A DNA stretch of 64,000 nt from Candidatus Falkowbacteria bacterium (GTDB lineage: Bacteria > Patescibacteriota > Patescibacteriia > Patescibacteriales > UBA12465): contig CP066698.1 in assembly GCA_016432645.1 (NCBI GenBank), positions 453,062 through 517,061 on the forward strand. The letters run 5' to 3'. A program made the translations under genes and the position numbers. The number at the start of each line of letters is the position of its first letter. The first letter of the stretch is position 1. This document shows, in pieces, positions 6,227-36,823 of the stretch. Below the pieces are notes generated by a model, which saw nothing but the letters and a program-made list of their open reading frames with translations, was not told where the DNA came from and made no database searches.

Positions 6227-6811
6227 TTATTTAACCACAATAATATGCCCTTGGGGCCCGGATTGCAAGCCGCCGCAAGCTGAACAATAATAGATAAAGT
6301 CGCCGTCTTGCAGGGCTTGAAATTCTAAGGTTTTAGTTTCCCCTTGATTGGGTGCCTGTTTCATATTATAACCGGAGATGGTGAAGTCATAAGCCTTGTC
6401 AACTGCCGTAAATTCAATATGAACCGTGTCCCCTTGATTAACAATTATTTTTTCCGGAATAAATTTATCAGCCTGGGCTTTAACATTAAAAATTCTAATT
6501 TGAGCTGATGAGCCTTCGACCACCGGAACCGCGGCGGTTGGCACGGCAATTTGCTCCTTTAAATTATCGGGTATAATAGTTTTCATTTCCGGCACAACCA
6601 CGCCTTCAGGCACCGCCTTGCGCGTATCCGTTTCTTCCCAATCGCGAGGCGTAGTAGAACTCTGAGAAGCATCAGGTACGAATTGATTGCCAACTTCAAC
6701 AACCGGCGTTACTGCTTGATTGCCAGATTTTAACTGCCAAAGGATAAGCGCCAGCAAAGCCAAAATAAGGATAAAACCTAAAGCTAAAATAATTTTTTTC
6801 TTATTATCCAT
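6227..6811 (-). CDS. Membrane-anchored cupredoxin-like domain protein
   Basis: Start moved to MDNKKK (ATG 6809-6811, 4 nt after the upstream stop). It has a TM anchor and a C-terminal beta-sandwich-like pattern GDTVHIEFTAVDKAYDFTI...GDFIYYCSACGG...GHIIVVK. Confidence 0.5.
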   Translation of the reverse strand: MDNKKKIILALGFILILALLALILWQLKSGNQAVTPVVEVGNQFVPDASQSSTTPRDWEETDTRKAVPEGVVVPEMKTIIPDNLKEQIAVPTAAVPVVEGSSAQIRIFNVKAQADKFIPEKIIVNQGDTVHIEFTAVDKAYDFTISGYNMKQAPNQGETKTLEFQALQDGDFIYYCSACGGLQSGPQGHIIVVK

Positions 6812-6815
6812 ATCC

Positions 6816-7202
6816 TTATTTAACGTATTCGTACAAAATCTCCGAATCTTGATTAATAGTTTTCCAGGCAATGCACTTACCGTCCGCATCGCGATCTAAA
6901 ACCTGAATCCGCGCGGCTGTTGGAATGCCCATGGCTTGCTTTTCTGTATCAGACATAAATTCTACTTCCACTTTTTCCGCCTGCGGATCGCCGGCAAAAG
7001 AATAAGTGTTAGGATTGGCGTTGTTCACCAGGGCCTCCGGTTCCGGTGAGGCTATCGGGCCGGTGCTCACTGATTCTAAATTTGTCGGAGCCGCTAAATT
7101 AGAATTGCGTGAAACTGATTTTTTTAAAAAAACTAAAGACAAAACGGCTGCAATTAAAACCAGCAGGACGATAATAACAATAAGCTTTTTTTGATGGCTC
7201 AT
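6816..7202 (-). CDS. Small membrane-anchored protein, tandem triplet member 3
   Basis: N-terminal TM plus a conserved C-terminal block VEFMSDTEKQAMGI..RIQVLDRDADGK..AWKTI shared with 7217-7579 and 7597-7902. Confidence 0.6.
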   Translation of the reverse strand: MSHQKKLIVIIVLLVLIAAVLSLVFLKKSVSRNSNLAAPTNLESVSTGPIASPEPEALVNNANPNTYSFAGDPQAEKVEVEFMSDTEKQAMGIPTAARIQVLDRDADGKCIAWKTINQDSEILYEYVK

Positions 7203-8019: not shown

Positions 8020-8808
8020 CTATTGTTTTATAAGTTTAACAACCGTTTTGCCGGCTTTAAGAAAGTAGATGCCGGGTTTTAAGCCAGCGGTGGAAATCTT
8101 GGCCAAACCGGGCTGCAAGCGCTGGCTAGCCAAAACGCGTCCGCTAGCATCAACGATAAACGCATCGACGTTTTGAAACGAGTTAATATTCAACTCATCT
8201 ATAAACGGATTCGGAAAAGCACTAACCGGAGATTTAAAAGGATCGAAGACATTAGTTAAATCGCCAAGTTTCAAGACGCTGTCGGCGGCCACGCATTTAA
8301 TGGTGCGTAAATGATAGTTGTGATAACTCTGGCCATTAAGACCGGAGCAAACGGTACTAATCCGATATTGGATTGAGTCGCCAACTTTAAGCTGGTTAAT
8401 AAATTCAATATCACCCAGCCAACCACTCGGATAACGCCAGCATGACCAAGAACTTTTAAAACCATTTTCGGTTATATCAGTTTGGAAATAAGCTTCCTGG
8501 CCAGACTCGTTGTTAGCGAAGTAGAAATTAAACCCTGATGCTGTCGTGTCGTTGAAGATTAGAGGCAATTCCAGATAGTCCGGAGCCGATAAAACTTCAA
8601 TAACGGTGTTGCCGGAAATAAATGAGGCATTCAGATAATACGAAGCGGAATACTTCTCTCCCGGAAGGAGACAAACCACGTCCGTACTCGGGTAGATTGC
8701 TTGTTCATAGGCACCGTTTACCAGCACCTTATTGAACAGATACGAATTTTTAGCTCCAGCCAGGCCGGAAATAAAAATTACAACAACAATTAACAATAAT
8801 TTTTTCAT
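8020..8808 (-). CDS. Secreted protein with a T9SS-type (Por) C-terminal sorting domain
   Basis: It has a signal peptide. The last ~65 aa, FPNPFIDELNINSFQNVDAFIVDASGRVLASQRLQPGLAKISTAGLKPGIYFLKAGKTVVKLIKQ, match the TIGR04183 pattern (PNP...l.i......v.i.d..Gr.v......G...i....L..GiYf.k......K.iK), recalled from memory. Confidence 0.6.
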   Translation of the reverse strand: MKKLLLIVVVIFISGLAGAKNSYLFNKVLVNGAYEQAIYPSTDVVCLLPGEKYSASYYLNASFISGNTVIEVLSAPDYLELPLIFNDTTASGFNFYFANNESGQEAYFQTDITENGFKSSWSCWRYPSGWLGDIEFINQLKVGDSIQYRISTVCSGLNGQSYHNYHLRTIKCVAADSVLKLGDLTNVFDPFKSPVSAFPNPFIDELNINSFQNVDAFIVDASGRVLASQRLQPGLAKISTAGLKPGIYFLKAGKTVVKLIKQ

Positions 8809-9649: not shown

Positions 9650-10999
9650 TTAATAGCACTCGCAAGTTCCATACGACTGAGCCACCCAAGAACCGCAATA
9701 ATCACAATAATATTGATCCCCCATACATCCCTGGCAATAACCGTAACCGCCGTTACAGTAACCGCCGGAATAACCAATATAAGTACAGAAACTGCTATTG
9801 CCATATCCATAACAAGCGCTATTATCTGAACAAACTTCGCCGCCGCAATCGCCATAGCAATTAGACGGTCCTTCCGTCGTTGTATAACAAATACCGTCAC
9901 CGCAATAACCACAATCCTTTACGCAGCTAGCGGCGGTTTCCCCGCTATCGCAAACTCCGTTACCGCAGCAAATTTCCGCGCAAGTTTTACAAGTAGTGTT
10001 GGAAAAAGTATAAGAGACTTCACAGCCATTAGCTAAACTACCGTCACAATTACAATATTGTCCGCCTGTACATTTAGCGGGATTACAAGAAGGATAAGGA
10101 CATGAGGTCCAGCGAGTATTGGTGCACCAACAGCTGGAAGCGGCCGTCGCTCCGGCGGAAGAAGTCATGTTAGCCGGACAAGTAGTTGCAGCTGCGGTTC
10201 CGCCCGTACAATAAGAGCCGACTGGACACTGAACACAGGTTGTTCCGCTGATATAATATCCGGCATTACAAGAACAAGTTTCCCCAGTAATCGTGACCGT
10301 ACCGTCAAAACAAGTAGCCGTAGCAGAACAAGAACCGTTAGTGATTGTTCTGCTGACTGATTGAGTACTATTAGCGCCGCCACTCTCTAAAGCATTATAA
10401 GAATATCCGCCCGAAGCACCGGCAGCACAATTTAACATACAAACATAATAACAACCATAAGTTGATTGATACCAAGAGCCGCTAGTGTAACGATAACCAG
10501 TATTGCAAGTTGGAACCGTACCGGTATTAGTAATAGTAACAACTCCGGTAGCACTGCAATTGGCGGTCGCACTTAAATGACCGCCATCGGTATGATAACA
10601 GGCCGGCTTATAGGCTACCCCTGTGGAACCATAATTAATGGCCGAATAAGACCAACCATCCGTTGTGCCCATCGGACATTGCGGGTTAACACAATCATCA
10701 ATCGCATCCGAACCAGCTGGTGAAACTTTGCCGCCCGTACAAGCGATTCTATCGGTAGCTCCCGGACAGTAATAATTAGCCGTGCAAGTGGAACAACTGG
10801 AGGCGCCGGCGGCGCTGTAAGTGCCGGCGGCACAAGTTCCGGAAACAGCCGTGTTACCAGTACTGCAATATGAAGAACCAGACTCTGAACAGAAAGGGCT
10901 AGAGGGAGCGGTCCCGGCAGCAATCACTGATTTAATTATCAACGCTACGGTAAATACTAGCGCTAATGAAGATAATGTAACAACAATGGCCTTCTTCAT
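9650..10999 (-). CDS. Secreted Cys-rich repeat protein (about 52 Cys in 449 aa)
   Basis: It has a signal peptide and motifs CxAGTY, CSTCTANYYCPG, CVQCPVGSYCTGG, CGNGVCDSGETAASCVKDCGYCGDGIC and a C-terminal Cys/Gly/Tyr tail. It shares a block (GxCSxTAxCxxGTVTxxGExxxCNAGYx) with the 1235-aa neighbour. Confidence 0.75.
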   Translation of the reverse strand: MKKAIVVTLSSLALVFTVALIIKSVIAAGTAPSSPFCSESGSSYCSTGNTAVSGTCAAGTYSAAGASSCSTCTANYYCPGATDRIACTGGKVSPAGSDAIDDCVNPQCPMGTTDGWSYSAINYGSTGVAYKPACYHTDGGHLSATANCSATGVVTITNTGTVPTCNTGYRYTSGSWYQSTYGCYYVCMLNCAAGASGGYSYNALESGGANSTQSVSRTITNGSCSATATCFDGTVTITGETCSCNAGYYISGTTCVQCPVGSYCTGGTAAATTCPANMTSSAGATAASSCWCTNTRWTSCPYPSCNPAKCTGGQYCNCDGSLANGCEVSYTFSNTTCKTCAEICCGNGVCDSGETAASCVKDCGYCGDGICYTTTEGPSNCYGDCGGEVCSDNSACYGYGNSSFCTYIGYSGGYCNGGYGYCQGCMGDQYYCDYCGSWVAQSYGTCECY

Positions 11000-11005
11000 A
11001 AAATT

Positions 11006-14000
11006 TTAATTATTTATATATTGGTTATCCGTATAAGAAGAACCGGAATAATCATAATAATCAGCCGAACCGTCACAATAAGAACCGGCGGGGCAATTTG
11101 TACAAGCGGAAGCGCTGGTTCCGCCGCTACTAGAATTATACTTACCAGCCGGACAGCTGTATTTAATCCCACCACTACAATATGACCCGGCCGGGCAAGT
11201 AATACATAATTTATTTCCCGAATGACAATAAGTATAATCAACCATTAATCCCGACGGATAAGATATGCTATCTAAATAATAAGTTCCTGCCGGGCAAGTA
11301 TAGCAACTGGCGGCCGAGGTGGCATTACAATTAGAAGTAGTGCTCCCGGAACAAATATTTTGATGAGTATCGGTGCTGCCAGCCGGACAATACCAACCGG
11401 CAAAACAACCGCCGTCACAAGTACTGACAGTATTGCCATAGGAATAGCCCGCATAGCCAGCCGCACAGCTAGCCTTTAACCCGCCGCTACAATATGAGCC
11501 CGGCTCGCATTGCGTTTGTCCGGTTCTAGTAGTGGAAGTTCCGCCGGTAGTATAATAACCGGAGGAAACTGTATAGCGAGTGTTGTTGTTGCAATAATAT
11601 TGATTGGGCGAGGCCATATTATAACCACAATCATAACAAGTTGAACCGCTTAAATATTGACCGCTTGGACAGTTGCAGGTATCTACCGAACAAGTTGAAT
11701 AAGTATAATTGCTGGGACTCCAGCCACCAGAAGTACAAGTTTGAGTCTGACTGGAACAACTGGAACCGCAAGCGACCGAAGATGTAGAATACATTGTCTG
11801 TGTGCTTACTGAAGAATAACTGGTAGCCGAATAATTATTTGGACTCCAAGATCCTGATGATTGGCAGGTTTGGGTTTCGGAATTATATCCATAAACACCG
11901 CAGCTATTAGTCGCATCGGCATATCTAACCCTAGTACTTAAGGTCGGAGCTGAAGCGGCAGTATAGGTACCATTAAAAGCACCAGAAGATTGGCAGGTTT
12001 GGGTTTCGCTGTATGCTCCCCAGACGCCACAAGCAGAAGTGGCGGCGGCATACATAGTGCGGGTAGTGTTAGCAGGAGTCGAACTTAAAGTATAAGACCC
12101 TGACCAAGAGCCTGAGGATTGGCAAGTCTGGCTTTCACTATAATAACCATAAGTACCACAAGCGGAAGTGGCGGCCGCATAACGTGTACGCGTGCTCGCT
12201 GCAGGCGCGGAACTTAAAGTATAAGAACCACTCCAAGAGCCGGAAGCTTGGCAAGTCTGACCTTCACTACTATAACCATAGGTGCCGCAGGCGGAAGTGG
12301 CGGCTGCATACATAGTTCTGGTACTCGCCGAAGGCGCGGAACTCAAAGCATAAGAACCGCTCCAGGAGCCGGAAGCTTGGCAAGTCTGACTTTCACTAGC
12401 AGAACCATATGTTCCACAAGCAGAAGTCGCCGCCACATACATCGTGCGCGTACTCGCCGAAGGAGCGGATGTCAAAGTATATGTCCCATTAAACGAACCG
12501 GATGACTGACAAGTTTGAGTTTCGCTGTTGGCGCCGTAAGTGCCGCAAGCAGACGTTGCCGCCGCATAACGCGTGCGCGTAGTATTTGTGGGAATTGAAG
12601 CTAAAGAATAAGTGCCATTCCAAACACCGGTTGCTTGACAGGTTTGAGTTTCTTGAGCATAACCGTAAGTTCCACAAGCCGAACTTAAAGCCGCATACAT
12701 GGTTCTAGTCGCTCCTGGAGTACAACTACAACTGGTGCCGCAATCGCCGCAAGTCGCACAAGTTTCACCATTATTACAAACGCCGTCGCCGCAACGAGAT
12801 TCACAACCATCGGCGCAACTAGTATTAATATCAAAATAACCAGCATTACAAGCGGCTGATTCTCCGCTAACTGTTACCGTGCCGCTATTGCAATTGGCTG
12901 TACCGGAACAATTTCCCTGGGTAACCACTTTGGAAACTGCTTGAGTAAAGCCATAATTAATATTGGAAAAAGTATAACCATTAACCGTCCCGCCAACACA
13001 ATAAGAGGCGGTACAAGCTGAGGAAGAAGTAGAACCGGCCGGCGAAGTATAGCCAGAGGTACAAGCCGTACAAGACGCGGAACTAGTGCCATTAACTCCG
13101 GCATTATAAGTGTTAATCGGACAGGTTGTATGATTAGTGCCGCCCGTACAATAGTAACCAGCACCGCAATTACCACAAGTTGTATTCCCTGTAGTCGTAT
13201 TAAAATAGCCGGCGGCGCAAGCAACGCAAGCAGTGACGCTAGTTTGACCAGTTAAAGCATTGGCTGTCCCAGCGGCACAGGCAGTTTGCGTGGCGCTGGA
13301 ACTACCGGCCGGACAATAATAACCAGCCGCACAAGTACCGGCAATAATACCGCCAACACAATATGAACCGGCGGTACATTGAGTTTGCCCGGTTCTAGTG
13401 GTGGAAGTTCCGCCAGTCGTGTAATAGCCGGTAGTAACATCAAAACAAGCCGCATCGCCACCATCAGACCATTTAGCATCCGAACCACAAGCGGTTTGAT
13501 CGCCACCGGTACAATAATACCCGGCACCGCAAACGGCTTGTCCGGTTCTAGTGGTGATCGTCCCTCCAGTAGTGTAGTAACCAGTTGAAACTGTAAAACA
13601 AGCAGCATCACCACCATCAGACCATTTATCATTGGCACCGCAAGCAAAGCGGCGATAATCATTAGCCGGAGAATAATAACCAGCTTCTACCAATTGGCAA
13701 ATACCATCGCGATTACTATCATAATAACCGGCCGCACAAGTATAAGAACCTGAAGGAGTAGAATTATAACCAACCGTACAAATACCGCTCGTCGCGCTCA
13801 CGTTACCGGTCGCGCAACAATAACCGTCAGAACAAGTTGTACAAGTTCCCGAACCTGGAGCGCTACTATAAGTACTGAAAGCGCAGGCTGACTGCGTACC
13901 ATTAGTACAGTAACTACCGGCGGCGCATTGCGTCTGCCCAGTTCTGGTTGTGGCTGTTCCGCCGGTGGTGTAATAACCCGCAGAAACCGTAAAACAAGCA

Positions 14001-14713
14001 GCCTCGCCCCCATCAGCCCATTTATCATTTGCGCCGCAAGGATATTGTTGATAATCATTTACAGGAGAATAATAACCGGGCAAAGTAGCCTCACAAACAC
14101 CATCACGATTACTATCATAATAACCGGCCGCACAAGTATAAATACCGGTTGTTGCCGAATTATAGCCAGCGGCACAGGCATTGCTACTGCTAGTAGTATT
14201 CCCTGTTCCGCAGCAAAAACCATCACTACAAAGATTGGAAGTACCCGAAGTACAATAATAAGCATAACCACATTGCGCCTGTCCGGTTCTGGTTATAGTC
14301 GTGCCGCCGGTAGAATAATAACCAGTGCTAACCGCTGAACGGCTGCAATCGCCAACGCAATAATTTGGATTACCACCGCAAGCCGTACAAACGCTCGCAT
14401 TCAAATAATAACCAGCCGAGCAAGCACAACAACTGGCTAAAGTTATTTCTGCTGGTTTATGAGAAACAAAAACATTCCACTCGTTAAGCGATTTAGTCGG
14501 AATAAAAAAATTCTTGGTCAGCGAACTATTGGAAACTACTTGGCAAATATCGCCGGAGGCGCTAGGAACGGTAATAGAGGTTCCGGAAGTATTCTTAGAG
14601 GCGACCCAACCGGTTGAAACCGTATTGTAAGTTCCAGCTAAAGCAATAAGCGGCAAAAAAATAAAAGCCGCCGCCACTAAATAACTCTTAAATTTTGAAA
14701 AGCGCTTGACCAT
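11006..14713 (-). CDS. Giant secreted Cys-rich repeat protein (ephrin-receptor-like / GCC2_GCC3-type CxxCxxGxY repeats)
   Basis: 1235 aa with a signal peptide. It has dozens of C..C.(A/P)G.Y units (e.g. CITCPAGSYCSGGIKYSCPAGKYNSSSGGTSASACTNCPAGSYCDG), five copies of GYYTTGGTxTTRTGQxQC, and an internal 43-aa tandem array. Confidence 0.8.
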   Translation of the reverse strand: MVKRFSKFKSYLVAAAFIFLPLIALAGTYNTVSTGWVASKNTSGTSITVPSASGDICQVVSNSSLTKNFFIPTKSLNEWNVFVSHKPAEITLASCCACSAGYYLNASVCTACGGNPNYCVGDCSRSAVSTGYYSTGGTTITRTGQAQCGYAYYCTSGTSNLCSDGFCCGTGNTTSSSNACAAGYNSATTGIYTCAAGYYDSNRDGVCEATLPGYYSPVNDYQQYPCGANDKWADGGEAACFTVSAGYYTTGGTATTRTGQTQCAAGSYCTNGTQSACAFSTYSSAPGSGTCTTCSDGYCCATGNVSATSGICTVGYNSTPSGSYTCAAGYYDSNRDGICQLVEAGYYSPANDYRRFACGANDKWSDGGDAACFTVSTGYYTTGGTITTRTGQAVCGAGYYCTGGDQTACGSDAKWSDGGDAACFDVTTGYYTTGGTSTTRTGQTQCTAGSYCVGGIIAGTCAAGYYCPAGSSSATQTACAAGTANALTGQTSVTACVACAAGYFNTTTGNTTCGNCGAGYYCTGGTNHTTCPINTYNAGVNGTSSASCTACTSGYTSPAGSTSSSACTASYCVGGTVNGYTFSNINYGFTQAVSKVVTQGNCSGTANCNSGTVTVSGESAACNAGYFDINTSCADGCESRCGDGVCNNGETCATCGDCGTSCSCTPGATRTMYAALSSACGTYGYAQETQTCQATGVWNGTYSLASIPTNTTRTRYAAATSACGTYGANSETQTCQSSGSFNGTYTLTSAPSASTRTMYVAATSACGTYGSASESQTCQASGSWSGSYALSSAPSASTRTMYAAATSACGTYGYSSEGQTCQASGSWSGSYTLSSAPAASTRTRYAAATSACGTYGYYSESQTCQSSGSWSGSYTLSSTPANTTRTMYAAATSACGVWGAYSETQTCQSSGAFNGTYTAASAPTLSTRVRYADATNSCGVYGYNSETQTCQSSGSWSPNNYSATSYSSVSTQTMYSTSSVACGSSCSSQTQTCTSGGWSPSNYTYSTCSVDTCNCPSGQYLSGSTCYDCGYNMASPNQYYCNNNTRYTVSSGYYTTGGTSTTRTGQTQCEPGSYCSGGLKASCAAGYAGYSYGNTVSTCDGGCFAGWYCPAGSTDTHQNICSGSTTSNCNATSAASCYTCPAGTYYLDSISYPSGLMVDYTYCHSGNKLCITCPAGSYCSGGIKYSCPAGKYNSSSGGTSASACTNCPAGSYCDGSADYYDYSGSSYTDNQYINN
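11681..12709 (-). repeat. Tandem array of about 8 units of 129 bp (43 aa) inside the 1235-aa gene
   Basis: Units follow TRTMYAAATSACGTYGYSSEGQTCQASGSWSGSYTLSSAPAAS (7 good copies plus 1 degenerate). The DNA period was checked from tggcaggtt at 11862 versus 11991 (129 bp). Confidence 0.85.
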
Positions 14714-14745
14714 ACGCGTGGGTTTTAATTTTTGCTTATCCTCTG

Positions 14746-15270
14746 TTATTTAGACAATTCTTTAACCTGAGCTTTCAATAAATCAATTTCTGCCTGCTGT
14801 TCTTTAACAGCTTCAATTAATAAGGCAACGATATTGCCATACTTAACCGCCTTCAAACCATCATTACCGGTTACTACTAATTCCGGAACTACTTTTTCAA
14901 CCTCTTGAGCAATCAAACCGATTTCTGCCTGGCCGTCTTTTTTCCAATTGAAAGATACGCCTTCCAAGGAATTAATTTTGTTCAGTGCGCCTGAGAGTTG
15001 AGCAACATTATCTTTTAACCTCAAATCGGAAGAATATAAAAATTCAGTGGCCGTTATGGAACCGGAAGAAACTAAATTAGCGCCGTCATTAGTTAAGACG
15101 CTGCTGGCTTCCCAGCCACTGGCACCATAGCGCAAAGTTTGTGCGCTAGTTCCATTCGGCAAACCGCTGCCCAAATAAGCGGCCTCTACCGGTTTATTAA
15201 AATTAATCAAAACCGCACCAGCCGTTAAGACAACTAACAATCCGAAGGAAATTAATAATTTCTTGTACAT
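14746..15270 (-). CDS. Stand-alone Peptidase_S74 (tail-fibre/endosialidase intramolecular chaperone) domain protein with signal anchor
   Basis: YSSDLRLKDNVAQLSGALNKINSLEGVSFNWKKDGQAEIGLIAQEVEKVVPELVVTGNDGLKAVKYGNIVALLIEAVKEQQAEIDLLKAQVKEL matches the S74 pattern (SD.RLK.NI...L..L.gv.f.wk.....iG.iAQEve.v.PElV......v.Y..l...lieAiKe). The N-terminus is hydrophobic. Confidence 0.8.
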   Translation of the reverse strand: MYKKLLISFGLLVVLTAGAVLINFNKPVEAAYLGSGLPNGTSAQTLRYGASGWEASSVLTNDGANLVSSGSITATEFLYSSDLRLKDNVAQLSGALNKINSLEGVSFNWKKDGQAEIGLIAQEVEKVVPELVVTGNDGLKAVKYGNIVALLIEAVKEQQAEIDLLKAQVKELSK

Positions 15271-15296
15271 ATTTTTATTTTTAAATTAATAACAAT

Positions 15297-17807
15297 TTAG
15301 TAGATAAACCAATCAGAGCCGTTACAATAAACCGGCGTGGAATTATAAGAGTCTAAAGAAATGGTATTTTGGCCGGCGATTGTCGTTGCTCCTTCTGGAT
15401 CAATTATCACTGCAAAAGTACTGCTGGCCTCATTAACAACAATAAATGTGCGGCCGGAAGCACAAAGCGCAGTCGGTAAAGTCACGGTGCGGTCTGCGGT
15501 TAAAGAAGTATAGGCAATAATATAATCAGTCGCCAGTGCGGTATAATTTGTATTAGCAACTGCTGTTCTCTTATTAATAATACCGCCACCAAAACTAAGC
15601 GCTGAAGAGACTTCAGATAAAAGTCCTTGATATAGAGCGCCAGTATTATCGGCTACTACATACTTATTACCCGCTCCACCCAGTAAAGAATGGGTGGTGG
15701 CCAGAGTGTTGCGTAAGGAGCCGACAATATCTAATTTTGCTGCCGGATTAGTAATTCCAATCCCCACGTTGCCGGTATTATAATAAATTGAAGTTCCATT
15801 AGTAGTCCACTGGCTAGAAGAAAATGCTGTACCATTTACCCGGAAAGCGCCAGTAACATTAACATCCCCAACCACATCTAATTTATACAGCGGACTGGAA
15901 GTACCGATGCCAATATTGCCATTAGCAAATAGATTTCTAATATTTAAATCGCGATAAGCACTCAGAGTTCCGGCAGTAACCGTGACGCCGTCATAAATTT
16001 CTAAAGCACCGGTGGTTGTTCGGCGTAAGCCGACATCTTTGGTGCCGCTATAAGCAGTCGTGCCCGACCAAGCAAACGGAAAATCTTTATTCAAATAAAG
16101 ATAAGAAGAAGTTAAATAATAATTACCAGCTTGATCTAATAAGTTGGGGATATAAACATTGGTGTCGCCCGTTCTCTTTTGAATTGCCATGCTGCCGGTC
16201 TCTGAATAAGTAGAAACCGCGCCATCACTGGCAATTTCGACTGCGCGGCTATAAACACCCCACAAGGTATAAGATAAATTACTATAGTTAGCGCTATAAG
16301 CACTATCAACAGTAACTACTGAAGTTGAGGTGTAGCCCGTAATAATTCGACTCTCGCCGTTAATTGTCAGACGTGAACCAATCATACTGGCGGAAAATTG
16401 AAAATTGACAACCGGGTTAAGAATTGTAACTGTTGTGCCGCTAGTACTGATACTTTGATTGGAATTCGGATTAAACCATTTTTTAATATGATAAAGGATG
16501 CTAACATTACTATTACTAATAAAGGCGGTTGGGGTCATAGAAAATAAAGACCCCGTATTATCAGACATCACAATGACATTGCCAGCTCCGCCAAGCAAAG
16601 ATAGCTGAGTGCTGCCGTTATTAATTATTCCAGGATTAGCGCCAGCGTTAATATTAAGTCTGGCAACTGGGCTGCTTGTTCCAATCCCGACATTACCCAA
16701 ACTACTAACAAATACTCCTTCATTGCCGCCATCACCGGACAACCAATAATTTCCTAATCTAATATTTTGTGTGGCAATATGATCGCCTAAATTATCACCG
16801 CCGGTTGCCGTTCCACAATCTGCAGTTTTTGCAGCTAAATTACCGGAGGCATCGACATAAACGCAGCGATTTCCACTACCGGACAGGGCGGTAGTAATCT
16901 GACCATTTAAATAACTAGTGCCGACAACCGTTAATTTATATAAAGGAGTGGTAGTTCCAATCCCCACGTTCCCTGCTCCGGCATCACCATTATAAATCGT
17001 GCCATTTTTAGTTCCGCTCCATAAGCTAGTTGGGGAATAAGAACTGAAAAAAGCAGCCGTAGTTGTTGAATATAAAGTTCCGGAATTATCCGCCATAATT
17101 ACCACATTACCAGCTGCGCCTAACAAGGGAAATTGAATGCTGCCGTTACCAATTAAACCGGGGTTAGCTCCAGGATTAATATATAATCTAGCCGTTGGAT
17201 TGGTAATGCCAATGCCTAAATTACCGGAATTTAAAATAGTAACTTTATCAGTACCGGCGGTTTGAAATTTTATTCCATAGGCTTGATTATTTAATAAGGT
17301 ATATCCCGTCGCTGAGTCATATAATTTTAAAGTGGCATAACTAGCACCGGCAGGATAGCCATAAATAGAGCCGCCGCCAAAAAGATTAGCCGCGATAGCA
17401 ATATTCCCTTGAACTTCTAATTTTTGCGATGGTGTACTTGTTCCGATTCCAACATTCCCCGCCAGCCCAATATTGGTTCCGTTCAAATTTAATTGCGCAC
17501 CTGAAGCGTTTTCTAAATAAAGATTCCCGGTATTAGTATAAATACCGCCGACCGGATTCCCGACACGCGTAAATTGCAAACCCCAGTAACCGTCCGGTAC
17601 TTCAATTCTCAATTTTTCATTAGCACCAACAGCCCCAGTTCCGATACCAAAATTACCGCCGGTATAAATCGTGTCCGTGGTTGTTCCGAGACTAATTGAT
17701 TTCGCTTGAACCTGAGTCATTAAACCGAACATAAAAAGGCCGGCCAAAGAAAAAATCAGCAGTGCCAGCCTGTTTTTGTTATGTTTAGAATATGAGGAAA
17801 TTAGCAT
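15297..17807 (-). CDS. Giant-family surface fibre protein (836 aa), GNVGIGT-repeat, tail-fibre-like
   Basis: It has a signal peptide and a GAGGAG RBS. Repeated G-N-(V/L)-G-I-G-T-x-x-P-x-x-(K/R)-L motifs are present, plus GDNLGDHIATQNIRLGNYWLSGDGGNEGVFV and one RNTLATTHSLLGGAGN cassette. The C-terminal knob-like domain is ..TVTLPTALCASGRTFIVVN... Confidence 0.75.
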   Translation of the reverse strand: MLISSYSKHNKNRLALLIFSLAGLFMFGLMTQVQAKSISLGTTTDTIYTGGNFGIGTGAVGANEKLRIEVPDGYWGLQFTRVGNPVGGIYTNTGNLYLENASGAQLNLNGTNIGLAGNVGIGTSTPSQKLEVQGNIAIAANLFGGGSIYGYPAGASYATLKLYDSATGYTLLNNQAYGIKFQTAGTDKVTILNSGNLGIGITNPTARLYINPGANPGLIGNGSIQFPLLGAAGNVVIMADNSGTLYSTTTAAFFSSYSPTSLWSGTKNGTIYNGDAGAGNVGIGTTTPLYKLTVVGTSYLNGQITTALSGSGNRCVYVDASGNLAAKTADCGTATGGDNLGDHIATQNIRLGNYWLSGDGGNEGVFVSSLGNVGIGTSSPVARLNINAGANPGIINNGSTQLSLLGGAGNVIVMSDNTGSLFSMTPTAFISNSNVSILYHIKKWFNPNSNQSISTSGTTVTILNPVVNFQFSASMIGSRLTINGESRIITGYTSTSVVTVDSAYSANYSNLSYTLWGVYSRAVEIASDGAVSTYSETGSMAIQKRTGDTNVYIPNLLDQAGNYYLTSSYLYLNKDFPFAWSGTTAYSGTKDVGLRRTTTGALEIYDGVTVTAGTLSAYRDLNIRNLFANGNIGIGTSSPLYKLDVVGDVNVTGAFRVNGTAFSSSQWTTNGTSIYYNTGNVGIGITNPAAKLDIVGSLRNTLATTHSLLGGAGNKYVVADNTGALYQGLLSEVSSALSFGGGIINKRTAVANTNYTALATDYIIAYTSLTADRTVTLPTALCASGRTFIVVNEASSTFAVIIDPEGATTIAGQNTISLDSYNSTPVYCNGSDWFIY

Positions 17808-17878: not shown

Positions 17879-17887
17879 ATTATAACA
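17879..17887 (-). promoter_or_regulatory. Promoter: -35 TTGCCC, 17-nt spacer, extended -10 TGTTATAAT
   Basis: The minus strand reads TTGCCC-tatatttggaaaaatgt-TATAAT, after the terminator at 17926-17957 and 72 nt before the ATG at 17807. Confidence 0.55.
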
Positions 17888-17925
17888 TTTTTCCAAATAT
17901 AGGGCAACGGGTTATAAGGGCTTAA

Positions 17926-17957
17926 AAACAAAAAACGCGAGCTAAGAAACTCGCGTC
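17926..17957 (-). terminator. Rho-independent terminator of the cupredoxin gene
   Basis: The minus strand reads ACGCGAG-TTTCTTAG-CTCGCGT followed by TTTTTTG. Confidence 0.75.
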
Positions 17958-17978
17958 TTTTAAGTCTATTTTCAGAAT

Positions 17979-18671
17979 TTATTTAACAATCATTTTACCG
18001 ACTTCGCCAGCTTCGGCATGACCCGGAGAAGCACAACGGAAAGTATATTCACCAGCAGTTGTCGGAGCATTAAAAGTAATCGCCTTGGTTTGTCCCGGCC
18101 CGACTAAAATCGCGATAGCCGCGAGACTTGGATCATCGAAAGCGATAACGTGAGAGTAAGAATCAACTCCAGTTAAGGTAAAGGTGGTTGGAGCGCCGAC
18201 AGTTGTCGAGAATGAAGTTGGGCTAAATTTATTGTTGCCAACACTGATACCGACAACATCCTTAGAAATTTCTTCCTTGTTCAAAAATCCGGTTTGTTTA
18301 GGTGCATTTTCCGTCATCGGCTGAGCATTATTATCCGTAACTTGACCGGTTGCGGTCACGACTTTATTGTCAGCAGAAATTGGGTTAGCCCCAGGAACGA
18401 CAACTTTAGCTCCCTCTAAATTAGCGACGTTAGCCTCTTGTAAAGAAGCAGAATTGACTGGAGTAGAAGCGTCTTGCCCTTCTTGGGCAGTCTCAGCGGC
18501 ATTTTCCTGATTAACCGCTCCTCCTTGATTATTAGTAGTTGGCGCCTCATTCTTTTTGCTGGCTAACATTGCTATCACAATAATGACGACAACAAGTAAG
18601 ACTGCAGCAAGAATAAGCACTAACTTGTTCGGCTTCTTAGCGCCGACGTTTGCGTTTTCTTGAGTCTCCAT
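17979..18671 (-). CDS. Membrane-anchored cupredoxin (type-1 copper-like ligand set)
   Basis: It has a TM anchor, a polar linker and a C-terminal domain with ..SYSHVIAFDD.. and ..YTFRCASPGHAEAGEVGKMIVK (His...Cys-x4-His-x9-Met). Confidence 0.65.
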   Translation of the reverse strand: METQENANVGAKKPNKLVLILAAVLLVVVIIVIAMLASKKNEAPTTNNQGGAVNQENAAETAQEGQDASTPVNSASLQEANVANLEGAKVVVPGANPISADNKVVTATGQVTDNNAQPMTENAPKQTGFLNKEEISKDVVGISVGNNKFSPTSFSTTVGAPTTFTLTGVDSYSHVIAFDDPSLAAIAILVGPGQTKAITFNAPTTAGEYTFRCASPGHAEAGEVGKMIVK

Positions 18672-18718: not shown

Positions 18719-21700
18719 TTATTCAATAACGAAACCGGCTTTTTCTGTCTGGTCAAGCGACTTTGTCGGCCAGTTTCTCCAATCAATACGGCGTCCAGAT
18801 AAGCGATAGGAAATTGTGGTCGGTCTATCGGCGCGGAAAATAATTTTATTGCCCTCTATCTTATAATATACTTGGGCAAAATTACCATAAGGAGTAGCAA
18901 CAACTTCAACATTCTCGCTTGAAAAATCAACCGTCTTTCTCCAGACCCAAAGATCGCTGCCAGCAGCTAAAGTATTAAAATCAATAACATATTCTCGTTC
19001 ACCATCAGCGGTCAAATTATTAATTTTTACCCGACCAAGATATTCTTCTTTAACGCCGCCAGCAATAGATGAGGCAAAGGTGGAATAATTTATCCCCTGA
19101 ATATTATATAGAGGGTCAATCGTATTAACTGTTAATTTATTGATGTTGGTAATATTATTACCGCCCATATTCAAGTTGCCGCTTAAGCTGCCACCGGTTA
19201 GTGGTAAATAACTGCCGCTGCCGCCAATAAAGCCCGCGGTACTGGTGGAATATAAATTACCATTATTATCAGCCATCACTAGAACTTCCCCGCCGCCGCC
19301 TAGCAAGGAATGGGTCGTGGCTAGGGTGTTGCGGAAAGTACCCGTAACATCAAGCTTAACGGAAGGATTAGTTATACCAATACCGACGTTGCCGCCGTTT
19401 GGATTAAGCAACAAAGAATAACTTAAACTTAAATCTGATTTATTAGTTGCCTGCAACCAAGTTCCGGAAGAACTGCCACCGGTTCCCATGTCCAACACCA
19501 CGTTGCCACTAGTAGCGGCTTCAATTCTTAAAGCGCCATAAGTCTGAGTGGAAGTAGCAATGGTCTGCGGTAATCCATAAGTAACCTGATTGATATCTAA
19601 TTTAGCTCCAGGAGTTGCAAAGCCAATCCCCACATTACCAGAATCGCGTTCAATAGCCATTCTAGTATTAACTGTGGTGCCATTGCCGCTGTTTAAATTA
19701 AAATAATTACTGCTTCCATTATAAAGGACCCTAAATCCGTAAGTTCCGGCAGTGCCAAAGGCGCCAGTTCCTTCCAATAAATCAATTAAAGTAGAAGTTG
19801 AGTTTACCGCGCCTGTTATGCGTATCCCTGCGCCAGTAGCTTCATATAATTCCAATTTACTAATTGGATTTGTCACCCCAATCCCGACATTACCTGCTCC
19901 TGAATCACCGTTCCAAATATTGCCATTTAAAGTTCCTCCCCATAAACTGGTACCGCCGGAAAGCAAAGAAGCGGTGCTAGTTGCATAAAGCGCGCCAGTG
20001 TTATCTGCCATAACCACCACGTTACCTGCCCCGCCTAACAAGGAGTGGGTTGTGGCGAGGGTATTGCGAAGAGTTCCAGAAACGTCTAATTTTGTACCCG
20101 GGCTAGTTTGACCGATACCGACATTGCCAGCCGAATTTATAACCATACGAGCCGATGCCGCAACAGCGCCGTTTGTATTATCCCAAAAAGTCAAGGTGCC
20201 GGCACCAGGATAATCTCCAGTTCCAGTTGATATAATAGAAAATTCTCTACCACCAGTATCAGTAGATTCTAATGTAATACCCGTCCCAGCTGGATCACTA
20301 GAAATAACACGTAATTGATTAGTATAGTTACCGCCACTGATATCAAGTTTATGAACAGGACTTGTCGTTCCAATTCCGACATTTCCGGAAGACTTAAACG
20401 TAACCAAATCTCCAGTTCCTAATCCCCCAGTAGTATTATTAACATAGGATAATTTAAAATCATTGCTTGTATTATCTCGACCCAGAGTCCAAGTTTCTGC
20501 TCCATTGTTTGATTTAACAAATCTAATATCACTATCATCGCCCAAAGCGCTAGTTGAATTTATTTTTAAAGTTGCGGTACTAGTACTAGACAAATGTAAC
20601 AAAGCTGTCGGACTAGTAGTCCCCATGCCGATATTACCACTATTTATTATTCTCATTCTTTCATTATGATTACCAGTTTCTCCAGTCAAAAAACCGATGT
20701 ATGAATTAGTATCTGAAGTAGAGAGACTATAACCAATAATTTGAGCCGTACTTGCTCCCCAATTTATTGTACCTCCGCTGTTGACTAAGTAACTGTTAGC
20801 TCTAAAGGCGCCGTCAACATACAAACCTTCCGCTCCCATCCAAGATGGATAGGCGGTATCACCAATCACAACGCCGTTAGTACCGCTGGTTACAATCTGT
20901 AATTTAGTTGAAGGCGTTGTTGTTCCAATACCAACATTTCCTGCTCCTGCGTCACCATTATATATTGTTCCATTTAAAGTTCCTCCCCATAAACTGGTGC
21001 CGCCAGAAAGTAAAGAAGCTGTACTTGTCGCATAAAGCGCCCCGGTGTTATCTGCCATAACCACCACGTTGCCCGCACCGCCGAGCAAAGAGTGGGTTGT
21101 AGCGAGGGTGTTACGAAGGGCGCCAATAACATCTAATTTCACTGCTGGACTTGTCGTTCCGATACCAAGATTGCCATTTGTTAGAATCGACATACCGGTC
21201 CATAATCCAGTATTTATATAACTAGAGGCAGCGCTAGTTTTATAACCTATATCAAGTCTGTAGCTGCTACTAACTCCTCTGGCACCAAATATCCAATGCC
21301 TATTATCACCTGAATTAACAACATTAGTTAATACTAATGCAGATGCGTCATTACCAGCATCACTAGACACAATTTGCAGGCTTGACTCTGCGTCTTCTAT
21401 AGTAAGTACGCTACCAGTATCATAATGAGTGCCACTAACCAAACTACGAGCTGTATGTAATTTCGCTGCAGGATTTGTCGTCCCAATCCCGACATTGCCA
21501 ACGCTATTAATAACAAATTCATCAGTAAATGTATTTGCGGCGCCAATATCGCCACCGCTAGAACGCGCTATTACAAAACTAGTAGAAGAACTATGGGTCA
21601 ACTTTGGTGCCGAACCGCTCTTTTTTGTATACCCCAATCTTGGCGGATTATTAGTATCCATGCCAAAAAAAGTATCATCCGTGTTACCAAGAATGCTGCC

Positions 21701-23791
21701 GGCCACATTTAGTTTTGCTCCTGGATTCGTCGTACCGATTCCGACGTTACCGCCAGAATTAATAGTTATACTAGGAGTATCGCTATTATTTGAACTAAAA
21801 TTTAAGCTATCGCTAGATCCGGATTTGATAATTGGCGTATCGGCGGCAATAGTTTTTATTTCGATTGAACCTATGTCGGTATTATTTCTAAAAAAAGCTA
21901 AACTAGACGAACTAGTAGTATCATAAACATGAAGTCTAGCCGAAGGAGCCGTCGTCCCAATTCCCACATTCCCCACTCCCGCATCACCATTCCAAATATT
22001 AGAATTCTTGGTACCGCCCCAGAAATTGGTGCCACCACTAAAACCGGCCGTACTAGTTGCATAAAGGGCGCCAGTATTATCAGCCATAACAAGAACGTTG
22101 CCTGCGCCACCGAGCAAAGAATGAGTAGTAGCTAAAGTATTCAATGAAGTTCCAGAGACATATAATTTTGTATTAGGATTGGTAATGCCAATGCCGACAT
22201 TACCATTAACATACAAATCGGCTGTACTGCCAGACAGAGAATCAGTTGTTCCAATGCCGACTTTTTTATTAAACGAGAAATTACCCCAGCCATCAAAAAT
22301 TAAAGCACCGGGTTGAGAATTATCACTTCTAGTAGCACTAATTATAGTGGTTGTCGAATTCCCCTGAAAATTTAATAAACCATTTGAAAAGTCTGTTCCA
22401 ATTCCGACATTGCCGCCTAATACTTCCAACTTATTTGTCGGGGCTGTCGTCCCAATTCCCACATTACCTCCCGATGTTAAAGCCATCACTTGAGTGGCCT
22501 GAACGAAATGTAGTGCCGTACCAGTACTAGCGCCAGTTTTTTTATGCATTATATGATACCAGCTAGCATTCCCATCGTTACCGGCACGCATAGTTAAGCC
22601 AGCAAAACTTCCAGTGGTATTATCAGGATTCTCTAGATGCAATGTTCTATCAGCATCGCCAGGAGAACTTTGGGCACTATTATTATAAGAAGCGATTACC
22701 GATAAACCAAGCGTTGAACGACCCCAATTAGCGCCAATGGTGGAATTTCCGCTAACGCTTAATTTGGCACCCGGGTTTGTCACGCCAATCCCCACATTAC
22801 CATCCTTCCTAATAACCATTTTGGCATCACTAGTAGAGGCGTTGCCTGCGTCAGCGGCATTATCCAAGGCAAAGACAAAATCTCCACGACCCCAATCCGA
22901 ACCATCTCCTTTAAAGAATAGCGCACCTTTGGCATATTCGTCAGTCGTTACTCCAGAATCACCAATACTAAACTGTATGCCAGCACTTTGAGAAAGAGTG
23001 TCGGCGCCGTTGTTTCTTACTTGCAGTTGTGTGCCATCAACTGCCTGATTAATATCTAATTTTCTAAAAGGATTAGTCGTTCCTAAACCAATATTATAAC
23101 CGTAATTAGCATTCCAAATTTTTCCAGTTGTGGTTCCACCCCAAAGGTCGGAACCGCCGCCCAAAAATCCCGCCGTGCTGGTCGCGTAAAGCGTACCAGT
23201 GTTATCAGCCATCACTAAAACATTGCCGCCACCGCCAAGCAAGGAATGAGTAGTGGCAAGAGTATTACGTAAAGAACCGGCAACATCCAAGGCAGTCGTA
23301 GGGTTAGTTAAACCAATGCCCAATCTTTTATTTTGAATTCCGCCCGCCCCATTCGATTCCGAATACGCGGTCATAATATTGTCGCCGTCAACTTTAAAGG
23401 CATAGCCCTCAGGTGTTCCGGAAGCCGCTCCGGAAGTCACTGGCATATCGACAAAAGACACTAAACCAGAATCCGGACTAAATTCAAAACTACCGATATT
23501 TAAAGGTGCGCCGACTTCAATTTGATTACTGGCATTAACCTTAAACATGTTAACCACGCCCGTCCCGGCCGCATTTTGTGCGGAAATCCAACCATTATTT
23601 AAAATTTGTAAAAGCGTGGTCGGATTAGTGATACCAATACCGACATTACCGCTTGTACCGTTAACGGTAAAATAAGATTGGCTTGGAGAAGCGGCATTAA
23701 AAATATTAAAATTCTTAGCAGAAGCAGCCGAAAAAGACAGCAAAAAGCCGATGGTAACGGTCAATATTATTTTGTAATTTCGCTGTCTCAT
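18719..23791 (-). CDS. Giant surface fibre protein (~1690 aa), GNVGIGT-repeat family
   Basis: Start moved to MRQRNYKIILTV (ATG 23789-23791, AAGGA RBS), giving a signal peptide. It has five RNTLATTHSLLGG(A/G)GNV.VMADNTG.LY.TSTA cassettes and many GNVGIGTTNP..KL motifs, plus a distinct C-terminal domain. Confidence 0.8.
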   Translation of the reverse strand: MRQRNYKIILTVTIGFLLSFSAASAKNFNIFNAASPSQSYFTVNGTSGNVGIGITNPTTLLQILNNGWISAQNAAGTGVVNMFKVNASNQIEVGAPLNIGSFEFSPDSGLVSFVDMPVTSGAASGTPEGYAFKVDGDNIMTAYSESNGAGGIQNKRLGIGLTNPTTALDVAGSLRNTLATTHSLLGGGGNVLVMADNTGTLYATSTAGFLGGGSDLWGGTTTGKIWNANYGYNIGLGTTNPFRKLDINQAVDGTQLQVRNNGADTLSQSAGIQFSIGDSGVTTDEYAKGALFFKGDGSDWGRGDFVFALDNAADAGNASTSDAKMVIRKDGNVGIGVTNPGAKLSVSGNSTIGANWGRSTLGLSVIASYNNSAQSSPGDADRTLHLENPDNTTGSFAGLTMRAGNDGNASWYHIMHKKTGASTGTALHFVQATQVMALTSGGNVGIGTTAPTNKLEVLGGNVGIGTDFSNGLLNFQGNSTTTIISATRSDNSQPGALIFDGWGNFSFNKKVGIGTTDSLSGSTADLYVNGNVGIGITNPNTKLYVSGTSLNTLATTHSLLGGAGNVLVMADNTGALYATSTAGFSGGTNFWGGTKNSNIWNGDAGVGNVGIGTTAPSARLHVYDTTSSSSLAFFRNNTDIGSIEIKTIAADTPIIKSGSSDSLNFSSNNSDTPSITINSGGNVGIGTTNPGAKLNVAGSILGNTDDTFFGMDTNNPPRLGYTKKSGSAPKLTHSSSTSFVIARSSGGDIGAANTFTDEFVINSVGNVGIGTTNPAAKLHTARSLVSGTHYDTGSVLTIEDAESSLQIVSSDAGNDASALVLTNVVNSGDNRHWIFGARGVSSSYRLDIGYKTSAASSYINTGLWTGMSILTNGNLGIGTTSPAVKLDVIGALRNTLATTHSLLGGAGNVVVMADNTGALYATSTASLLSGGTSLWGGTLNGTIYNGDAGAGNVGIGTTTPSTKLQIVTSGTNGVVIGDTAYPSWMGAEGLYVDGAFRANSYLVNSGGTINWGASTAQIIGYSLSTSDTNSYIGFLTGETGNHNERMRIINSGNIGMGTTSPTALLHLSSTSTATLKINSTSALGDDSDIRFVKSNNGAETWTLGRDNTSNDFKLSYVNNTTGGLGTGDLVTFKSSGNVGIGTTSPVHKLDISGGNYTNQLRVISSDPAGTGITLESTDTGGREFSIISTGTGDYPGAGTLTFWDNTNGAVAASARMVINSAGNVGIGQTSPGTKLDVSGTLRNTLATTHSLLGGAGNVVVMADNTGALYATSTASLLSGGTSLWGGTLNGNIWNGDSGAGNVGIGVTNPISKLELYEATGAGIRITGAVNSTSTLIDLLEGTGAFGTAGTYGFRVLYNGSSNYFNLNSGNGTTVNTRMAIERDSGNVGIGFATPGAKLDINQVTYGLPQTIATSTQTYGALRIEAATSGNVVLDMGTGGSSSGTWLQATNKSDLSLSYSLLLNPNGGNVGIGITNPSVKLDVTGTFRNTLATTHSLLGGGGEVLVMADNNGNLYSTSTAGFIGGSGSYLPLTGGSLSGNLNMGGNNITNINKLTVNTIDPLYNIQGINYSTFASSIAGGVKEEYLGRVKINNLTADGEREYVIDFNTLAAGSDLWVWRKTVDFSSENVEVVATPYGNFAQVYYKIEGNKIIFRADRPTTISYRLSGRRIDWRNWPTKSLDQTEKAGFVIE

Positions 23792-23812
23792 GTGAACTTT
23801 TATTTTCCTTTT

Positions 23813-23823
23813 ATTATAGCACA
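23813..23823 (-). promoter_or_regulatory. Possible internal promoter TGTGCTATAAT
   Basis: The reverse complement reads TGTGCTATAAT, between the LamG stop (23828) and the ATG at 23791. Confidence 0.35.
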
Positions 23824-23827
23824 ATTT

Positions 23828-31197: not shown

Positions 31198-31581
31198 CTA
31201 AAAATTGGCCTCAACGCTCCGTTTGGCACTCTGATATTCGCCCACGGAAACGAAGACGCGTGTCGGCTCGGCGTCAATGAAAAATTCCTTATAAGAAACG
31301 CCTGAACTCTCCAAATCACCGCTAATAATCGGGGTATCTAGCGAAATGTCGTCTTTGGTGTGCGGCAAGTTTTCCTTGCGTACTTGATATAAAATATTTT
31401 CCAAACCGGCCTCGGCCGCAAAATAGGCTTTAGTAGACTGCGCCTGCGTGCCACCGGCTTTAATGCCGGAGACAATAATGTAAGAACCGCTCATCGCGAC
31501 CACCAGCATGCCCGCCAAAATAAACATCGTTAAAATCATAGCGCTGCCGGCTTTAAATTTTTTAATATTTAAGAAAACCAT
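31198..31581 (-). CDS. PilX-like minor pilin / pilus assembly protein
   Basis: The N-terminus ..KAGSAMILTMFILAGMLVVAMSGSYIIV resembles the PilX N-terminal domain. It is the last gene of the pseudopilin cluster. Confidence 0.5.
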   Translation of the reverse strand: MVFLNIKKFKAGSAMILTMFILAGMLVVAMSGSYIIVSGIKAGGTQAQSTKAYFAAEAGLENILYQVRKENLPHTKDDISLDTPIISGDLESSGVSYKEFFIDAEPTRVFVSVGEYQSAKRSVEANF

Positions 31582-31591
31582 AAATTAATTA

Positions 31592-32651: not shown

Positions 32652-32652
32652 A

Positions 32653-33246: not shown

Positions 33247-33253
33247 GATATTT

Positions 33254-34696: not shown

Positions 34697-34736
34697 ATTT
34701 TAATCAGCGCGGCCTTACCAGTCCGCCTTGATTTAA

Positions 34737-35189: not shown

Positions 35190-35193
35190 ATAG

Positions 35194-36201: not shown

Positions 36202-36207
36202 AGAAAA

Positions 36208-36216
36208 AGTATAGCA
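36208..36216 (-). promoter_or_regulatory. Extended -10 TGCTATACT 6 nt from the FemAB-family gene ATG (leaderless-type)
   Basis: The minus strand reads TGCTATACT-TTTTCT-ATG, directly after the pilin terminator. Confidence 0.45.
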
Positions 36217-36221
36217 TAAAC

Positions 36222-36252
36222 ATAAAAAGAGGCTAGTTTTACTAGCCTCTTT
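36222..36252 (-). terminator. Rho-independent terminator of pilin gene 2
   Basis: gaggctagt-ttt-actagcctc. The minus strand is followed by TTTTTAT. Confidence 0.8.
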
Positions 36253-36288
36253 GATAGATATAAATTGTGGAGATAAAAACAGGAATGA

Positions 36289-36756: not shown

Positions 36757-36785
36757 AGTGATTTAAAAAATTAATTTATGTTTTT

Positions 36786-36796: not shown

Positions 36797-36823
36797 AAAA
36801 AATAAAAAATAATTAATAATACA

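Follow-up and report, generated by a model that had tools for sequence, protein, structure and literature searches.

The gene considered here raises the question of what a self-cleaving S74 chaperone domain does in a protein that contains almost nothing else. It lies in a 64-kb stretch of a Candidatus Falkowbacteria chromosome (contig CP066698.1, positions 453,062 to 517,061), which we refer to as the window and whose numbering is used below, and it occupies positions 14746..15270 on the minus (-) strand. From an ATG start it encodes a 174-amino-acid (aa) protein, QQG53034.1, annotated as "tail fiber domain-containing protein", in which a predicted signal peptide and a stub of about 50 residues precede a Peptidase_S74 domain that ends in a long helix. 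The original prediction located this open reading frame (ORF) exactly, quoted its sequence correctly and described its hydrophobic N-terminus, ~50-aa pre-domain and S74 domain; it regarded the domain as split from a phage-type fibre and offered two readings, a trans-acting chaperone for giant fibres or a minimal fibre stub, the second of which turned out to be the better. Here, we argue with moderate confidence that the gene encodes a shaft-less ('minimal') secreted S74 fibre protein of the Candidate Phyla Radiation (CPR) that would act together with the product of the next gene. From gene order, this mini-fibre gene appears to be the middle member of a conserved cassette, which consists of a fibre gene of the type without S74 (NS74), an S74 fibre gene of variable length and a gene for a partner carrying a conserved N-terminal module. 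The cassette points to a multi-part cell-surface adhesin, not to a broken phage gene.

The S74 domain and the stub before it

The S74 domain spans residues 81–174 (14749..15030, minus strand), and residues 81–132 match Pfam PF13884 with E=6e-17 and 62.1 bits against a cut-off of 22. It is the only S74 domain in the window found by a hidden Markov model (HMM) built from orthologues. The Ser/Lys dyad claimed for it is present: Ser81 (codon 15028..15030) and Lys86 (codon 15013..15015) belong to an SDxxxK motif whose S81, D82 and K86 are invariant in alignments of 36 orthologues and of 121 diverse relatives. Compared with PDB sequences, the family profile matches phage S16 gp37 best (E=7.8e-16), followed by tail fibre 8JOV and MyRF (7DC3), and S81 and K86 align with the catalytic S587 and K592 of MyRF. 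These residues correspond in turn to S911 and K916 of endoNF, and MyRF is cleaved at P586|S587 (PMC8326128); similarly, the mature tip of Bd3182 ends at A781, just before the catalytic S782 (PMC10769870). Because of these two precedents, we predict that the scissile bond lies between S80 and S81 (YS|SD), on the N-terminal side of the catalytic serine and one residue earlier than the YSS|D cut originally proposed. An AF2 monomer model based on the 121-sequence alignment has a mean predicted local distance difference test score (pLDDT) of 90.2, an earlier run on the shallow 36-sequence alignment (pLDDT 58.6) having been discarded. Foldseek searches with this model returned the MyRF ICA domain 7DC3 as the best structural match (E=1.8e-6, target-normalised TM-score 0.65), together with the endoNF intramolecular chaperone (IMC) 3GW6 and GA-1 gp12 3GUD, at probability 1.00 and with no other meaningful matches. 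The model is consistent with an S74 beta 'donut' and tentacle region followed by a C-terminal helix (residues 144–172) as found in a triple coiled coil.

Residues 1–30 (15181..15270, minus strand), as read from the sequence, have the n/h/c layout of a Gram-positive-type Sec signal peptide, with an n-region MYKK, an h-region of 18 residues and a c-region NFNKPVEA that provides an A-x-A-like site, V-E-A|A, with V at -3 and A at -1. Across the 36 orthologues Ala30 never varies and Ala31 hardly does. We read this N-terminus as a predicted cleavable signal peptide, the alternative being an uncleaved anchor; of the 'signal-anchored' protein originally described, the hydrophobic N-terminus thus stands, while the anchoring is unproven. 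The mature stub, residues 31–80 (15031..15180, minus strand), contains one hairpin module of the form G-x3-QTLRY-x4-W and a pre-cleavage strand, ITATEFLYS, conserved as A-x-x-F-x-Y-S, so that only ~50 residues precede the C-terminal S74 domain. The AF2 model places strands in the stub at residues 44–49, 52–61 and 66–68. A few orthologues carry a single GNVGIG..P..L motif, and the more distant ones show indels and replacement in the pre-domain.

The protein is under strong constraint. About 35 full-length orthologues of 153–201 aa share 53–95% identity with it, all have PF13884 as their sole domain, and reading frame, signal peptide and dyad are intact down to 53% identity. The ratio of nonsynonymous to synonymous substitution rates (dN/dS), calculated against two relatives, is 0.03–0.06 overall and does not rise in any one part, be it the signal peptide, the pre-domain of 50 residues or S74; the values for the stub are 0.02–0.05. 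The wider family is very large, with 184,821 S74 relatives at E<=1e-3 in a search of representatives and a median S74 protein length of ~527 aa in the genome scan. The lengths below 300 aa returned by the orthologue search are no evidence that short forms dominate, as the word-based candidate step of that search missed long relatives such as P0134. Gracilibacteria recode TGA as a sense codon, and several seemingly short Gracilibacteria ORFs are probably artefacts of translation with table 11. NCBIfam holds no model for the mini-protein or the fibres. Taken at the sequence level, the protein is a bona fide S74-family member that is exported, stand-alone and short and that has an intact dyad.

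Origin of the short form and its gene cassette

The gene directly upstream (15297..17807, minus strand) encodes a secreted 836-aa fibre with GNVGIGT..P..KL repeats. As originally described, it lacks S74, and its TAA stop lies 26 nucleotides (nt) upstream of the mini-fibre ATG; the spacer (15271..15296, minus strand) is AT-rich and without a terminator-like site. The fibre ends in its own conserved C-terminal domain of ~110 aa (15297..15630, minus strand), which terminates this non-S74 subfamily with YCNG[ST]xWFIY, here NGSDWFIY, in every relative; the same ending is found in L001, L054, L008, L087, P0122–P0127, P0137 and P0151. Because the fibre has an end of its own and the mini-protein a conserved signal peptide of its own, the two genes do not appear to be halves of one, contrary to the 'split from its fibre' of the original prediction. 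One orthologue clade (L003–L007, L088) moreover has no fibre upstream and carries a gene for a 146–153-aa membrane protein there.

A different source for the mini-protein is suggested by a 1262-aa Patescibacteria S74 fibre, P0134, with whose two ends both ends of the mini-protein align, the signal peptide and first module at 38% identity and the S74 domain at 54%. The stub module is homologous to the first module of P0134 and recurs three more times inside that fibre; the pre-domain has no counterpart in the other ORFs of the window. Comparison of loci gives the same picture. Fibres of the NG[ST]xWFIY type are directly followed by an S74 gene of 152–978 aa in 7/7 lineages found (the window, L054, L001, L008, L087, L252 and L253), and this syntenic slot holds S74 proteins of 152, 168–180 and 978 aa; in L252 the gene after the NWFIY-type fibre encodes an S74 fibre of 978 aa, and its counterpart in L253 is a mini-version of 152 aa. 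Because both termini match P0134 and the same slot holds a 978-aa S74 fibre, the mini-protein is best read as a long S74 fibre that probably lost its shaft internally. Long S74 fibres do exist in relatives, where the original prediction had suggested looking for fused forms, and they fit shaft loss rather than a gene split.

The surroundings of the locus are cellular. The window carries genes for NAD-dependent DNA ligase LigA, a GatA-type amidase, ThrRS, YbeY, a FemAB-family protein, a P-type ATPase, tRNA-Ser and a type IV pilus operon (PilB, PilC, pseudopilins), and no phage genes were seen around the mini-fibre locus, which is flanked by housekeeping and pilus genes. A Candidatus Falkowbacteria metagenome-assembled genome (977-kb contig) encodes a protein that matches the 836-aa one with 100% identity, and a 95%-identical copy of the 174-aa protein occurs in Candidatus Falkowbacteria S5_I03. 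Since the window is cellular and both proteins have these Falkowbacteria matches, the neighbouring "fibres" are CPR surface proteins rather than phage tail fibres, and the phage framing of the original prediction does not apply.

On the downstream side, a 32-nt spacer (14714..14745, minus strand) separates the mini-fibre stop from the ATG of the partner gene (11006..14713, minus strand), which encodes a secreted Cys-rich protein of 1235 aa (8.3% Cys) with furin-like repeats and is a conserved neighbour. Every orthologue locus has a Cys-rich secreted protein 25–48 nt downstream of the mini-gene. The same order recurs with short secreted CPR S74 proteins that are unrelated to this one: at -1 to +12 nt from their genes comes the gene for a secreted protein, which is of the Kelch type in L167, contains Fibrinogen_C in L171 and is Cys-rich in L093. 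All these downstream proteins share a module of ~70 aa directly past the signal peptide (alignment A2). In the partner it covers residues 29–103 (14405..14629, minus strand; HMM E=4e-24), with invariant C57, P72, T73, E78, W79, F82 and C95 in addition to a conserved N-x-S/T. Searches of Pfam, NCBIfam and PDB sequences gave no match to the module, a protein search with alignment A2 returned nothing at E<=1e-3 (the domain is short and the database very large), and we found nothing in the literature that links S74 to CPR or describes the module, the paper on Bdellovibrio adhesive fibres (PMC10769870) included.

To survey the module, its HMM was run over 252 loci (2.06 Mb) chosen for carrying S74, where it was found in 18 of 80 genome loci, 19 of 80 metagenome loci and none of 80 viral loci. 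Its position is closely tied to S74: 40 of 47 matches lie 77–1322 nt (mostly 80–310) downstream of an S74 domain on the same strand, against a chance expectation of 9% (binomial p about 1e-34). Its distribution is likewise uneven, with 31 of 149 cellular versus 0 of 75 viral S74 loci (p=1.7e-6), and 12 of 29 loci from Bdellovibrionota, Omnitrophota and CPR versus 0 of 26 from Bacteroidota (p=1.4e-4). An independent test that started from the fibre gene found the predicted module in L253 (E=5e-23). The gap between the two genes is -4 to 48 nt in all but two of 34 non-redundant S74-module pairs, and many pairs have gaps of -4 to +2 nt. The S74 proteins of these cassettes form a length series from 152 to 1726 aa, those of the pairs starting at about 170 aa, with examples in Bdellovibrio sp. 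HCB-110 and Peredibacter. All of them retain SDxxxK and share a pre-cleavage tip, [FY]-x-[YW]-[ST]|SD, in which Tyr79 is present in 95% of cassette proteins versus 35% of non-cassette cellular and 25% of viral ones. The C-terminal domains of the partners are variable and mostly of a binding type (furin-like Cys-rich, Kelch, Fibrinogen_C, LamG, Fib_succ_major, Hint). S74 and module distances are correlated (Mantel r=0.58, 0/2000 permutations), which we do not use as evidence of interaction because linkage alone explains the correlation.

The cassette genes may be transcribed together. A consensus scan, the sole source of these sites, places a terminator-like hairpin graded strong (17962..17929) and then a promoter-like site (17907..17879) upstream of the 836-aa gene on the minus strand, and finds no terminator-like site between the fibre, mini-fibre and partner genes. 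The putative transcription unit that starts at the promoter-like site would comprise these three genes and one for a 449-aa Cys-rich secreted protein (9650..10999, minus strand), which starts 6 nt past the partner gene and is syntenic in L054.

Several other observations concern the same genes. The partner gene contains a 129-nt tandem repeat (12027..12481, minus strand; 3.5 copies, 79% matches), which at the protein level corresponds to ~8 copies of a TRTMYAAATSACGTYG..SE.QTCQ.SGSW unit. In L003–L006, an STT3/PMT_2-like (glycosyltransferase-type) membrane protein is encoded ~3.5 kb upstream of the mini-fibre gene; this neighbour and the conserved N-x-S/T of the partner module suggest glycosylation as a possibility. 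There is also a second CPR family of secreted S74 mini-proteins of ~180–200 aa with another stub (AWTGPSQSPPNGNV.AP.NVG...), found in L167 (5001..5549 of that locus), L169 (5001..5597 of that locus), P0068, P0087 and P0041. In L167, 2 nt separate such a mini-protein gene from the gene for the module-carrying Kelch protein.

Proposed mode of action and its alternatives

The closest cellular parallel is provided by the mosaic adhesive trimer (MAT) fibres of Bdellovibrio, secreted trimeric prey-recognition adhesins that terminate in S74 or have beta-sandwich or other tip domains in its place (PMC10769870). The 1701-aa neighbour encoded at 18719..23824 (minus strand) matches the MAT structures 8OND (Bd2133; E=1.6e-11), 8OML and 8OJN, and the 836-aa protein, which has no Pfam or S74 match, weakly matches 8OJN. 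On this sequence similarity, the giant secreted repeat proteins of the CPR genome appear to be homologues of MAT fibres; for one of them, the 1744-aa ORF at 25873..31107 (minus strand), the Pfam scan, the only search run on it, gave no match. Like the MAT S74 subgroup (Bd3182; PMC10769870), the mini-protein is cellular and has a signal peptide and a C-terminal S74 domain with SDxxxK. S74 and non-S74 fibres coexist in one genome in both cases, and the S74 fibres of Bdellovibrionota have the same downstream partner module as the cassette here. MAT fibres are, however, ~1000 aa long and have a beta-rich domain of ~130 aa after the signal peptide, where the mini-protein has 50 residues (PMC10769870). 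Their long trimeric beta-helical shaft with capping-loop repeats is also absent from the mini-protein, such repeats being found in its 1701-aa and 836-aa neighbours, and the host here is a monoderm CPR bacterium. By analogy, the mini-protein may work like the MAT S74 subgroup but without two features that define MAT fibres, the ~130-aa N-terminal domain and the shaft.

Other S74 proteins and fibre chaperones resemble it less completely. The C-terminal chaperones of phages (endoNF/K1F 3GW6, T5 pb1 4UW8, GA-1 gp12 3GUD) share its Pfam family, dyad spacing, C-terminal position and fold, but they leave behind a large trimeric enzyme or fibre of the virion and act in the cytoplasm, whereas the mini-protein has a client of ~50 residues, is predicted to be Sec-exported and is encoded in a cellular genome. 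In MyRF, a C-terminal coiled coil drives trimerisation as may happen here, but MyRF is a eukaryotic transcription factor of the endoplasmic reticulum membrane whose ICA domain is internal, not C-terminal. TfaMu, Pam3 gp25 and T4 gp38/gp57A are small separate ORFs adjoining a fibre gene, as is the mini-protein, and Pam3 gp25 is an IMC-like helical bundle with 'tentacles' (PMC9608196); they differ in being outside the S74 family and in having neither a cleavage dyad nor a signal peptide, whereas the mini-protein has S74, the dyad and a substrate in cis. The gene arrangement is most like that of the T2-type phage S16, in which an S74-ended fibre, gp37, is followed by the gene for a separate binding protein, gp38 (PDB 6F45). 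The gp38 adhesin attaches to the gp37 tip through its N-terminal part (PMC9608196). The Cys-bounded and probably beta-rich partner module has no detectable similarity to gp38, docking is hypothesised here, and the fibre is reduced to a stub.

These comparisons suggest how a shaft-less fibre could function. The Sec-type signal peptide predicted from the sequence would direct export, and outside the cell the C-terminal helix and S74 domain, if they behave as in the rest of the family, would form trimers and fold, in cis, the short segment that precedes them. Cleavage of each chain between S80 and S81 by the Ser81/Lys86 dyad would follow, giving a trimeric stub with ~50 residues per chain that ends in ...EFLYS and a free trimer of the 94-residue chaperone. 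We speculate from gene linkage that one of these two, stub or S74 trimer, works together with the product of the gene 32 nt downstream, whose N-terminal module would dock onto it. The outcome would be a trimer-based surface adhesin with its binding part supplied by the partner, analogous to S16 gp38 on the gp37 tip.

Several considerations weigh against this proposal. We infer trimerisation, cleavage and partner contact from family knowledge and gene linkage, and linkage, like the Mantel correlation, can reflect co-inheritance alone. Fifty residues are very few for a stub to form a stable triple beta-structure, and it is doubtful that the stub would stay stable once the chaperone is lost. Because all that cassette S74 proteins have in common is the S74 domain with ~15 preceding residues, the partner could recognise the chaperone domain instead of the stub. 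The frequency of the module comes from loci selected for S74 and is not a genome-wide figure, and there is no evident cell anchor if, as predicted, the signal peptide is cleaved.

The strongest competitor to a shaft-less fibre takes up the same common region. The S74 trimer could act in trans as a chaperone, serving as the template on which the downstream partner module folds or oligomerises outside the cell, with the stub as a vestigial substrate that lets S74 fold and release itself. The S74 domain and pre-cleavage strand are, after all, the sole part that cassette S74 proteins share, the partner module is conserved, many pairs of genes lie so close (-4 to +2 nt) as to suggest coupled production, and there are precedents, such as Pam3 gp25 and TfaMu, for fibre chaperones of IMC-like architecture that work in trans (PMC9608196). 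We nevertheless consider it unlikely, as purifying selection among close relatives is as strong on the stub as on the S74 domain, the long members of the cassette series, which reach 1726 aa, are clearly fibres themselves, and known S74 domains work in cis on the segment N-terminal to them (PMC3742443). A trans-acting role directed at the giant non-S74 fibres, chiefly the 836-aa fibre 26 nt upstream, would explain why the S74 gene directly follows an NG[ST]xWFIY fibre in all seven lineages found, why fibre precedes chaperone as in phages (PMC9608196) and why the scan detects no terminator between the two genes. This idea is more improbable still, since one clade has a small membrane protein in the place of the upstream fibre, the S74 gene of that slot encodes a 978-aa fibre of its own in L252, C-terminal beta-sandwich domains replace S74 in Bdellovibrio MAT fibres (PMC10769870), and a pure trans-chaperone needs neither an invariant cleavage dyad nor a conserved stub.

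That the gene has no function at all deserves very little credence. A decaying remnant of a long S74 fibre gene, its shaft deleted and the rest heading for loss, would have the architecture observed, equal to the two ends of a long fibre, and would account for the indels and replacement in the pre-domain of more distant orthologues, but the ~35 full-length orthologues with intact frames, signal peptide and dyad, the dN/dS of 0.03–0.06 and the occurrence of other short secreted S74 families in the same cassette of other CPR lineages lead us to reject a pseudogene. Least credible of all is an artefact or a phage gene, whether the end of the 836-aa gene severed by a frameshift or the tail-fibre gene of a prophage. 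The 26-nt spacing is close and S74 is best known from phages, but the same two-gene boundary, a ...WFIY-stop followed by a gene with its own signal peptide, recurs in independent assemblies, so that the frameshift entertained in the original prediction is rejected; a prophage origin is rejected as well, there being no phage genes around and none of the 80 best viral (IMG/VR) S74 loci matching the N-terminal 28 residues.

Neighbouring genes and host recognition

The type IV pilus operon (31198..40466) lies directly upstream of the giant repeat-protein genes, which are interspersed with other genes. Between the two largest fibre genes, a 682-aa protein (23828..25876, minus strand; syntenic in L001) has three Laminin_G_3 (ConA-like lectin) domains. 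Also encoded among the fibre genes are two small cupredoxin-like proteins, each with a hydrophobic segment at the N-terminus (17979..18671 and 6227..6889, both minus strand). The former is found in synteny in L001 and L054, and L252, too, has a Copper-bind fragment close to its fibre. A 262-aa ORF (8020..8808, minus strand) matches Por_Secre_tail, the C-terminal sorting domain of type IX secretion, with 30.8 bits against a cut-off of 27. CPR bacteria have a single membrane and hence no outer-membrane secretion system, which makes this match unexpected.

The shaft-less S74 fibre and its partner can be placed in a wider, more tentative model. CPR, Bdellovibrionota and Omnitrophota, lineages of small predators or host-dependent cells, may share a modular surface system in which a self-cleaving S74 fibre, reduced in this case to a trimeric stub of ~50 residues, is the platform that docks or assembles interchangeable secreted binding or toxin proteins (Kelch, fibrinogen-like, LamG, furin-like Cys-rich, Hint) through the new ~70-aa Cys-bounded domain. 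This would be a cellular counterpart of gp37–gp38 that serves host or prey recognition, and we regard it as a conceivable rather than a probable generalisation.

The S74 domain itself belongs to a known family, and the more interesting result is the cassette with its previously undescribed partner domain. That the self-cleaving chaperone is kept though the fibre is nearly gone implies that the fibre ends, not the shaft, carry an essential function, and with its 174 aa the protein offers a very small system in which to study extracellular trimerisation driven by S74. Most CPR bacteria are uncultured, and little is known of the way they attach to their hosts; here a Falkowbacteria genome carries relatives of the Bdellovibrio MAT prey-recognition fibres beside a type IV pilus operon. 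In three predatory or host-dependent phyla, S74 fibres are genetically coupled to variable binding proteins with an undescribed N-terminal domain. If this coupling reflects physical docking, it would give a testable model of modular, exchangeable host-recognition heads.

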